Source of the DNA: a virus
Lineage: Duplodnaviria > Heunggongvirae > Uroviricota > Caudoviricetes
Length of the DNA: 44,878 nt
Virus record (IMG/VR): IMGVR_UViG_2563366802_000013
Location: 1-44,878 of that record
Strand: one strand, 5' to 3'
The translations under genes were made by a program, and so were the position numbers. Below, one piece after another: positions 44,145 to 44,360 of the stretch. Every line of letters begins with the position of its first letter. Position 1 is the stretch's first letter. The notes under the pieces were generated by a model. The model did not search any database and had not been told where the DNA came from. It was given only the letters and a program-made list of their open reading frames with translations.

Positions 44145-44360
44145 ATGGACATCATCGACACAGCAGCAGAGATTGAAGAGCTTCAGCGTAACGCTGCCCT
44201 TTCCGCTCATCGCATCGACCACAACGCAGTATCAGCAACGCATTGCTCCGATTGTGGCGAGGATATTCCAGACCTGCGCCGAATGAAGGTGCCGGGCTGC
44301 CAGCGCTGCGCGTCGTGCCAGCAGGATGAAGAATTAAGAATGAAGACGGGGAGGATGTGA
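44145..44360 (+). CDS. TraR/DksA-family C4 zinc-finger protein
   Basis: ATG about 44145 with GGAG SD; motif CSDCGEDIPDLRRMKVPGCQRCASCQ matches the TraR/DksA C-terminal zinc finger. Confidence 0.65.
   Translation: MDIIDTAAEIEELQRNAALSAHRIDHNAVSATHCSDCGEDIPDLRRMKVPGCQRCASCQQDEELRMKTGRM

Follow-up and report, generated by a model that had tools for sequence, protein, structure and literature searches.

The window, that is the whole stretch of 44,878 nucleotides analysed here, encodes close to its end a protein of 71 amino acids which, as judged by its sequence, is a member of the TraR family: a small DksA-like zinc-ribbon protein of the lambda Orf73 type. We consider it highly probable (roughly 86%) that the gene encodes an Orf73-type TraR protein which is expressed early from pL, enters RNA polymerase's secondary channel and shuts down the promoters of rRNA and ribosomal protein genes. 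Binding to RNA polymerase, the effects on promoters, the independence of ppGpp and the timing of expression would be as in its homologues. TraR-like genes are an ordinary and already characterised kind of phage gene, and standard annotation pipelines name such genes correctly.

Family assignment and homologues

The protein reaches 67.2 bits with the NCBIfam model TIGR02419 (phage/conjugal plasmid C-4 type zinc finger protein, TraR family; cut-off 59.7), the match spanning residues 2-63 of the protein and positions 1-64 of the 64 in the profile, and 44.3 bits with the Pfam profile PF01258 (zf-dskA_traR; gathering cut-off 24.9). Since both curated thresholds are passed, the assignment to the TraR/DksA zinc-finger family, which an earlier sequence-only reading of this DNA had proposed, is confirmed. 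In addition PHROG 54, 'DksA-like zinc-finger protein', is matched with E = 5e-25. Such scores greatly exceed what chance similarity would give. The equivalog models for F-plasmid TraR (NF010268; 25.6 bits, cut-off 108) and for YbiI (NF008243 / PRK11019; 39.7 bits, cut-off 96) are not reached, and therefore the protein belongs to the TraR family without being an orthologue of either.

None of the DksA-type NCBIfam models reaches its threshold with the window protein. It has in common with DksA the zinc-ribbon domain PF01258 and the logic of the DxxDxA tip, and DksA is found as a structural match (5VSW). However, DksA proper could be ruled out, as it comprises about 150 amino acids and a two-helix coiled coil, whereas the window protein has 71 amino acids and a single N-terminal helix. 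DksA furthermore needs ppGpp, which the window protein, by analogy with TraR and Orf73, should not use.

In a large protein collection 593 homologues were found with E <= 1e-5. The best of them are 80-97% identical and come from Enterobacter, Citrobacter, Klebsiella, E. coli and Salmonella; where a name is given, it is 'TraR/DksA family transcriptional regulator'. A tblastn search against phage genomes yields 327 records, among them lambda at 30410-30607, a region without annotation in NC_001416 whose open reading frame is Orf73 (orf2310) with 73 amino acids. The window protein shares 60% identity with lambda Orf73 over 63 residues and 33% with F TraR in the zinc-ribbon half. Searching solved structures with the single sequence gives E. 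coli YbiI (2KGO, 3.5e-6) as the best match over the zinc ribbon, followed by TraR from RNA polymerase complexes (1.2e-4). The YbiI match is, however, limited to residues 28-66, so that the DxxDxA helix lies outside of it. A profile made from 66 homologues aligns end to end with TraR (5W1S, 6N57; residues 1-71) with E = 3.4e-9.

The gene and its coding evidence

The open reading frame is intact and runs from an ATG at 44145 to a TGA at 44358-44360 (translation MDIIDTAAEIEELQRNAALSAHRIDHNAVSATHCSDCGEDIPDLRRMKVPGCQRCASCQQDEELRMKTGRM).

44145..44360, plus strand: CDS, TraR / lambda Orf73-type protein, 71 aa, stop codon counted in (ORF call, PF01258, TIGR02419, PHROG 54)
44133..44136, plus strand: Shine-Dalgarno-like GGAG, 8 nt 5' of the ATG (read from the sequence)

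A TTG at 44139 can be discarded as the start of the gene, because the GGAG site is too near to it. The coordinates and the motif given by the sequence-only reading (C34-S-D-C37-G-E-D-I-P ... R45-R46 ... P50-G51 ... C55-A-S-C58-Q) are exact. The gene is under purifying selection, with pairwise dN/dS values of 0.16-0.34 against four relatives with measurable dS. Two open reading frames of the opposite strand (44152-44550 and 43617-44222) overlap it; neither has a Pfam match and both are therefore treated as spurious. PADLOC, run on the TraR-like protein and its neighbours, finds no match to a defence system.

A mosaic junction lies inside the gene (window 44145-44236 compared with 7490-7702 of L001). 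Residues 1-23 are the same as in gp35 of Enterobacter phage CobraSix and the remainder is about half identical, which gives 66% overall; the nucleotide match to the gp35 gene stops near 44236.

Functional residues

Conservation was counted over 66 homologues, and the lists of hallmark residues were taken from PMC9239242, PMC6970531 and PMC8614690.

44148..44165, plus strand: DxxDxA motif, D2-I-I-D5-T-A7, at the tip of the N-terminal helix; aligns with D3/D6/A8 of TraR and lambda Orf73
44244..44255, plus strand: first zinc knuckle C34-S-D-C37; aligns with TraR C37/C40
44271..44285, plus strand: D43-L-R45-R46-M47, equivalent of TraR E46-A-R48-R49-K50 (alignments)
44298..44300, plus strand: fifth cysteine, C52 (TraR position 55), shared by lambda Orf73
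44307..44318, plus strand: second zinc knuckle C55-A-S-C58; aligns with TraR C58/C61
44310..44345, plus strand: predicted C-terminal helix, residues 56-67, with the acidic run D61-E62-E63 (AlphaFold2)

Ten residues (D5, A7, C34, C37, R45, R46, G51, C52, C58 and E63) are invariant in the 66 homologues and C55 is nearly so. The full DxxDxA motif is present in 49 of these 66 close homologues, the others having ExxDxA or NxxDxA. The sequence-only reading had made its case depend on acidic residues at the tip of a coiled coil: the acidic residues are present, in a perfect DxxDxA motif, whereas the coiled coil is replaced, as in TraR-type proteins, by a single N-terminal helix. From the second Asp of the motif to the first Cys there are 29 residues, likewise in lambda Orf73.

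Residues C34, C37, C55 and C58 form a predicted C4 zinc site of the type CxxC-17-CxxC, the gap from C37 to C55 being 17 residues. The arginine pair R45/R46 aligns with R48/R49 of TraR, where the segment E46-K50 makes contacts with the rim helices and with β' Si3 (PMC9239242, PMC6970531). The ExxRK motif of the Si3 interface is degenerate (D43-x-x-R46-M47), with the acidic residue and the Arg retained and the Lys lost; lambda Orf73 has ExxRL. E63 aligns with TraR E66, and an acidic residue in the C-terminal helix is one of the listed hallmarks (PMC8614690).

Exactly five cysteines are found in 65 of the 66 homologues. C52 occupies the position of one of the two extra cysteines of lambda Orf73, which according to the authors of the Orf73 study might alter how the globular domain folds (PMC9239242). 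Because the extra C52 could change this folding, the window protein may differ in its quantitative behaviour.

Comparing the proteins as a whole, the window protein resembles lambda Orf73 in length (71 versus 73 amino acids), in the DIIDxA tip, in the length of the helix, in the extra Cys before the second CxxC and in having a hydrophobic residue at the position of TraR K50. It differs from it in having five cysteines instead of six, with S35 where lambda has C36. With F-plasmid TraR it shares the architecture of three elements, the DxxDxA motif, the C4 zinc site, the R48/R49 pair and the acidic C-terminal helix, but it has an N-terminal helix shorter by two residues and a Met in place of K50, and it is encoded by a phage while TraR comes from a conjugation operon.

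Predicted structure

An AlphaFold2 model, calculated with an alignment of 66 sequences, is of moderate confidence (mean pLDDT 75.9) and shows a helix at residues 3-21, a globular region at about 30-55 and a second helix at 56-67. These correspond to the three elements of TraR, two terminal helices with a globular domain between them (PMC6970531). The top PDB matches in Foldseek are YbiI, in first place, the polymerase-bound forms of TraR and of DksA, and DksA2; the match to TraR in the polymerase complex has a TM score of 0.55 over 66-67 columns. The E-values are weak (1.6e-3 to 1.3e-2), which is expected for a short and extended protein of 71 residues whose helix angles differ between the free and the bound form, and similarly modest values were obtained for models of lambda Orf73 (PMC8614690).

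Genome context and the early left operon

The window starts with the ATG of an integrase gene and ends with the stop codon of an excisionase gene, and thus represents a complete, circularly permuted temperate phage genome of 44.9 kb. That the TraR-like protein is phage-encoded is thereby borne out, the genome being a complete lambdoid one that has int at 1-1158 and the end of xis at 44878. The closest phage is CobraSix, and the structural genes are located on the minus strand. These structural genes are common with ES18-like and Klebsiella phages.

1-1158, plus strand: integrase
35190-35732, minus strand: YdaT-like protein, in the position of cII
35762-35989, minus strand: Cro/YdaS-like protein
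36100-36804, plus strand: cI-like repressor
37649..37677, plus strand: pL-like promoter of the leftward early operon, TTGCCA-17-TATCTT (sequence and similarity to HK639)
38933-39163, plus strand: Kil
40931-41791, plus strand: RecT
41788-42468, plus strand: YqaJ exonuclease (Exo)
43862..44053, plus strand: DUF1382 gene, homologue of lambda orf63, synteny marker of the exo-xis block (PF07131, 108 bits)
44360..44545, plus strand: 61-aa ORF, its start overlapping the stop codon of the TraR-like gene (ATGTGATG) (PHROG 3876)
44678-44878, plus strand: AlpA-type excisionase (xis)

The region around the promoter (about 37579-37727) is 94% identical to a region of phage HK639 with an annotated putative pL, and in the promoter and the first 60 nt or so of the leader one base differs from HK639. 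Between 40931 and 44545 the open reading frames of the plus strand abut or overlap and there is no supported gene on the opposite strand. We therefore place the TraR-like gene in the leftward early operon, within the exo-xis block. The placement in an early operon, already claimed by the sequence-only reading, holds, as the gene is on the same strand as the pL-like promoter, about 6.5 kb downstream of it, and is syntenic with lambda orf73. The order Kil, RecT, Exo, DUF1382, micro-ORF, TraR-like gene, xis and int is that of lambda and other relatives, and as in lambda the gene follows, within the pL exo-xis region, the orf63/DUF1382 gene and a micro-ORF that contains a hairpin. CobraSix, a Klebsiella prophage, two metagenomic contigs and a P22-like Salmonella phage also have the gene at this place, with immediate neighbours that vary. 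The gene downstream is ea22 in lambda, NinX in L005, a gene for an unrelated 79-aa protein in a Klebsiella phage and one for a 177-aa protein in CobraSix. The flanks in the window, which belongs to a CobraSix-like phage of the Enterobacter type, differ from those of lambda in having neither ea22 nor ea8.5. The 61-aa ORF was considered as a DUF4222-type protein, which follows the TraR gene in the Klebsiella phage, and shows no similarity to it.

A search with PHROGs for an N-like open reading frame in 37680-38600 recognised none, and in these about 900 nt there is no ORF with a family match. An antiterminator RNA in the leader similar to putL of HK639 was rejected, as the similarity decays about 15-25 nt before the HK639 putL; the pL leader of the window folds no better than shuffled sequences (z +1.0). 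Scanning the whole window with Rfam gives no family at gathering score and ARAGORN finds no tRNA or tmRNA, so that the conserved non-coding pieces of the window are not explained by known RNA elements.

Upstream micro-ORF and hairpin

The DUF1382 gene and the TraR-like gene are separated by 91 nt, within which a hairpin and a T-run are located.

44050..44142, plus strand: micro-ORF of 30 codons, MKALITRSLMRPFLLLAFTFNRINRQFLEH (also open, with similar sequence, in lambda, CobraSix and a P22-like Salmonella phage)
44068..44091, plus strand: terminator-like hairpin (7 bp) and T-run, inside the micro-ORF (dG -17.1 kcal/mol, z -3.5)

The micro-ORF starts with an ATG that overlaps the DUF1382 stop codon and ends 2 nt before the ATG of the TraR-like gene. 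The hairpin lies 60 nt 5' of the TraR-like gene, a position kept in four phages. The DNA of micro-ORF and hairpin is found in 98 phage records. In lambda it is immediately 5' of orf73, and in CobraSix, where it is unannotated, and the P22-like phage the micro-ORF is 5' of the orf73-type gene with one extra gene between them. Salmonella phage L carries the matching DNA at a different point of the pL operon, with ral on one side and a pentapeptide-repeat gene on the other, and there it bears the annotation of a terminator.

The micro-ORF has 29-32 codons in the window, lambda, CobraSix and the P22-like phage, with the conserved core PF(L/Y)(L/F)(L/F)AFT(F/L)(N/K)RIN, in which the T-run encodes P-F-L-L; its dN/dS values range from 0.3 to 1.3. 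Ribosome profiling of lambda reportedly detected peptides of 7 and 31 amino acids in the exo-xis block, and the micro-ORF may correspond to lambda 'orf2313' (31 aa). The segment 44050-44142 may be a terminator, a gene for a micro-protein or a translation-coupled attenuator. With the hairpin 60 nt 5' of the gene, and no N-like antiterminator recognised, the level at which the TraR-like gene is expressed is in doubt.

Function and proposed mechanism

The biology of this kind of protein is known from experiments. Lambda Orf73 and four other phage homologues were purified and compete with DksA for RNA polymerase, inhibiting rRNA promoters without ppGpp; the D3N and D6N variants of lambda Orf73 have lost their activity (PMC9239242). 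The homologues P2 Orf82, VHML Orf8, VP882 Orf61/TraR and X. bovienii Gp34 belong to the same family as the window protein, and they bind RNA polymerase, inhibit rrnB P1 and complement a dksA-null mutant (PMC9239242). P2 Orf82 and Gp34, with an imperfect DxxDxA motif, are less active, while the motif in the window protein is perfect. In the host, lambda Orf73 slows growth and raises the phage yield about fourfold (PMC9239242). The phenotypes of lambda orf73 are in conflict, however, since it is pro-lysogenic in one report and raises the phage yield in another (PMC9239242, PMC8614690). How the three elements of TraR act has been explained by cryo-EM of the TraR-RNA polymerase complex (PMC6970531).

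Given 60% identity, an N-terminal helix of identical length and nearly all hallmark residues, the same action as that of Orf73 is the best explanation for the window protein. After infection or induction the gene would be transcribed from pL as part of the exo-xis block, for which read-through of the terminator-like hairpin just upstream would probably be needed. The N-terminal helix would enter the secondary channel of the host RNA polymerase and bring D2 and D5 near the active site, the zinc-ribbon globular domain with R45/R46 would dock on the rim helices and on β' Si3, and the C-terminal helix would contact the β lobe and Si1. Without ppGpp, the altered conformation of the polymerase would destabilise open complexes at rRNA and ribosomal-protein promoters and so shift host resources to phage production.

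As with lambda Orf73, inhibition is probably strong and activation weak, because TraR K50, the Lys in contact with Si3, is Met in the window protein and Leu in lambda. In TraR the K50A exchange or deletion of Si3 lowers activation and not inhibition (PMC6970531), and activation by lambda Orf73 is weak if there is any (PMC9239242), from which we infer that the window protein is mainly an inhibitor. The sequence-only reading had spoken of a stringent-response-like control. Its interpretation is supported, and describes known biology, given that Orf73 and four homologues have been tested experimentally (PMC9239242); it is the transcriptional arm of the stringent response that would be mimicked, whereas the response itself would not be induced, the action being by homology independent of ppGpp (PMC9239242).

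Alternative explanations

That the micro-ORF/hairpin module and C52 represent undescribed regulatory or functional adaptations is in our view unlikely. The micro-ORF and the hairpin could then act as a translation-dependent attenuator which gates the amount of TraR-like protein, and the clade-invariant C52 could make the zinc domain inhibition-only or redox-sensitive. It is very unlikely that the protein binds RNA polymerase but works mainly in a complex with another phage protein. There is a precedent in vibriophage VP882, whose TraR, encoded in a pR operon, arrests growth strongly only together with its partner QisA and is inactivated by QtiQ, and partner candidates are at hand with the 61-aa ORF that overlaps the stop codon and the conserved micro-ORF that ends 2 nt upstream. 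However, the relatives lack a conserved neighbour on the downstream side, and both lambda Orf73 and F TraR are active in vitro without a partner (PMC9239242).

A target outside RNA polymerase, through which the protein would act on replication or lysogeny, can hardly be expected either, although earlier genetics placed lambda orf73 among inhibitors of host replication and pro-lysogenic genes (PMC9239242, PMC8614690), because such phenotypes can be explained as consequences of effects on RNA polymerase (PMC9239242). Moreover, nearly all hallmarks of contact with RNA polymerase are conserved in the window protein. We know of no other target. The mosaic junction, with the first 23 residues as in CobraSix gp35 and a divergent rest, would fit a decaying, non-functional remnant; that the gene is such a remnant, or a generic zinc-ribbon protein without specific role, is nevertheless extremely improbable, as the full-length reading frame is unbroken and has a good ribosome-binding site in front of it, dN/dS amounts to 0.16-0.34, the functional residues are invariant in the 66 homologues and the score is above the curated threshold of the subfamily. 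An Orf73-type inhibitor of RNA polymerase thus remains our preferred reading of the gene.

Other loci in the window

Several further loci were noticed during the analysis. Between the last ORF of the exo-xis block and xis there is a conserved non-coding element (44543-44640, plus strand) that comprises a perfect inverted repeat (TAGCCAG-TTATGAG-CTGGCTA) and, after it, a GC-rich terminator-like hairpin (44610-44628) with a T-run. The Enterobacter phages ENT1 and BHUENT3/6 as well as two P22-like Salmonella phages have it with about 90% identity, and in HK639 37 nt of it are identical; the flanking genes differ and Rfam gives no match.

At the other end of the window a UmuD-like gene (1159-1548, minus strand) abuts the stop codon of the integrase gene without an adjoining UmuC-like polymerase gene, whereas CobraSix has a pair of UmuD-like and translesion polymerase genes at the equivalent place. 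A gene similar to O-acetyltransferases or O-antigen acetylases (2019-3107, plus strand; PHROG 3333) between the int region and the tail fibre gene is likely a moron for lysogenic conversion.

Directly after the gene of the cI-like repressor, in the position of lambda rex, an ORF of 229 amino acids with a signal-peptide-like N-terminus (36819-37508, plus strand) precedes a strong terminator-like hairpin (about 37527-37550). The ORF matches only PHROGs of unknown function and has no PADLOC match, and is a candidate for a prophage-expressed moron or an exclusion gene. The early left operon also contains a Cys-rich ORF of 59 amino acids (38602-38781, plus strand; CENCGC...YCTNCQ), which resembles a CxxC...CxxC zinc ribbon and has no match in Pfam or PHROGs. 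Finally, an ORF of 212 amino acids (24023-24661, minus strand) matches PHROG 513, 'transposase', with E = 2e-101. Because it adjoins the terminase genes, it may be a mislabelled small terminase or DNA-packaging protein.

Significance

By analogy with the characterised homologues, a CobraSix-like temperate phage of Enterobacteriaceae would carry the same type of ppGpp-independent factor for the reprogramming of host transcription that lambda has, and its location within the early left operon is the same in both. The value of this finding beyond annotation is small and consists in one more natural variant, with five Cys, a Met at the position of K50 and a perfect DxxDxA motif. Variants of this kind can help in structure-function comparisons of how inhibition and activation are kept apart in TraR-type proteins.
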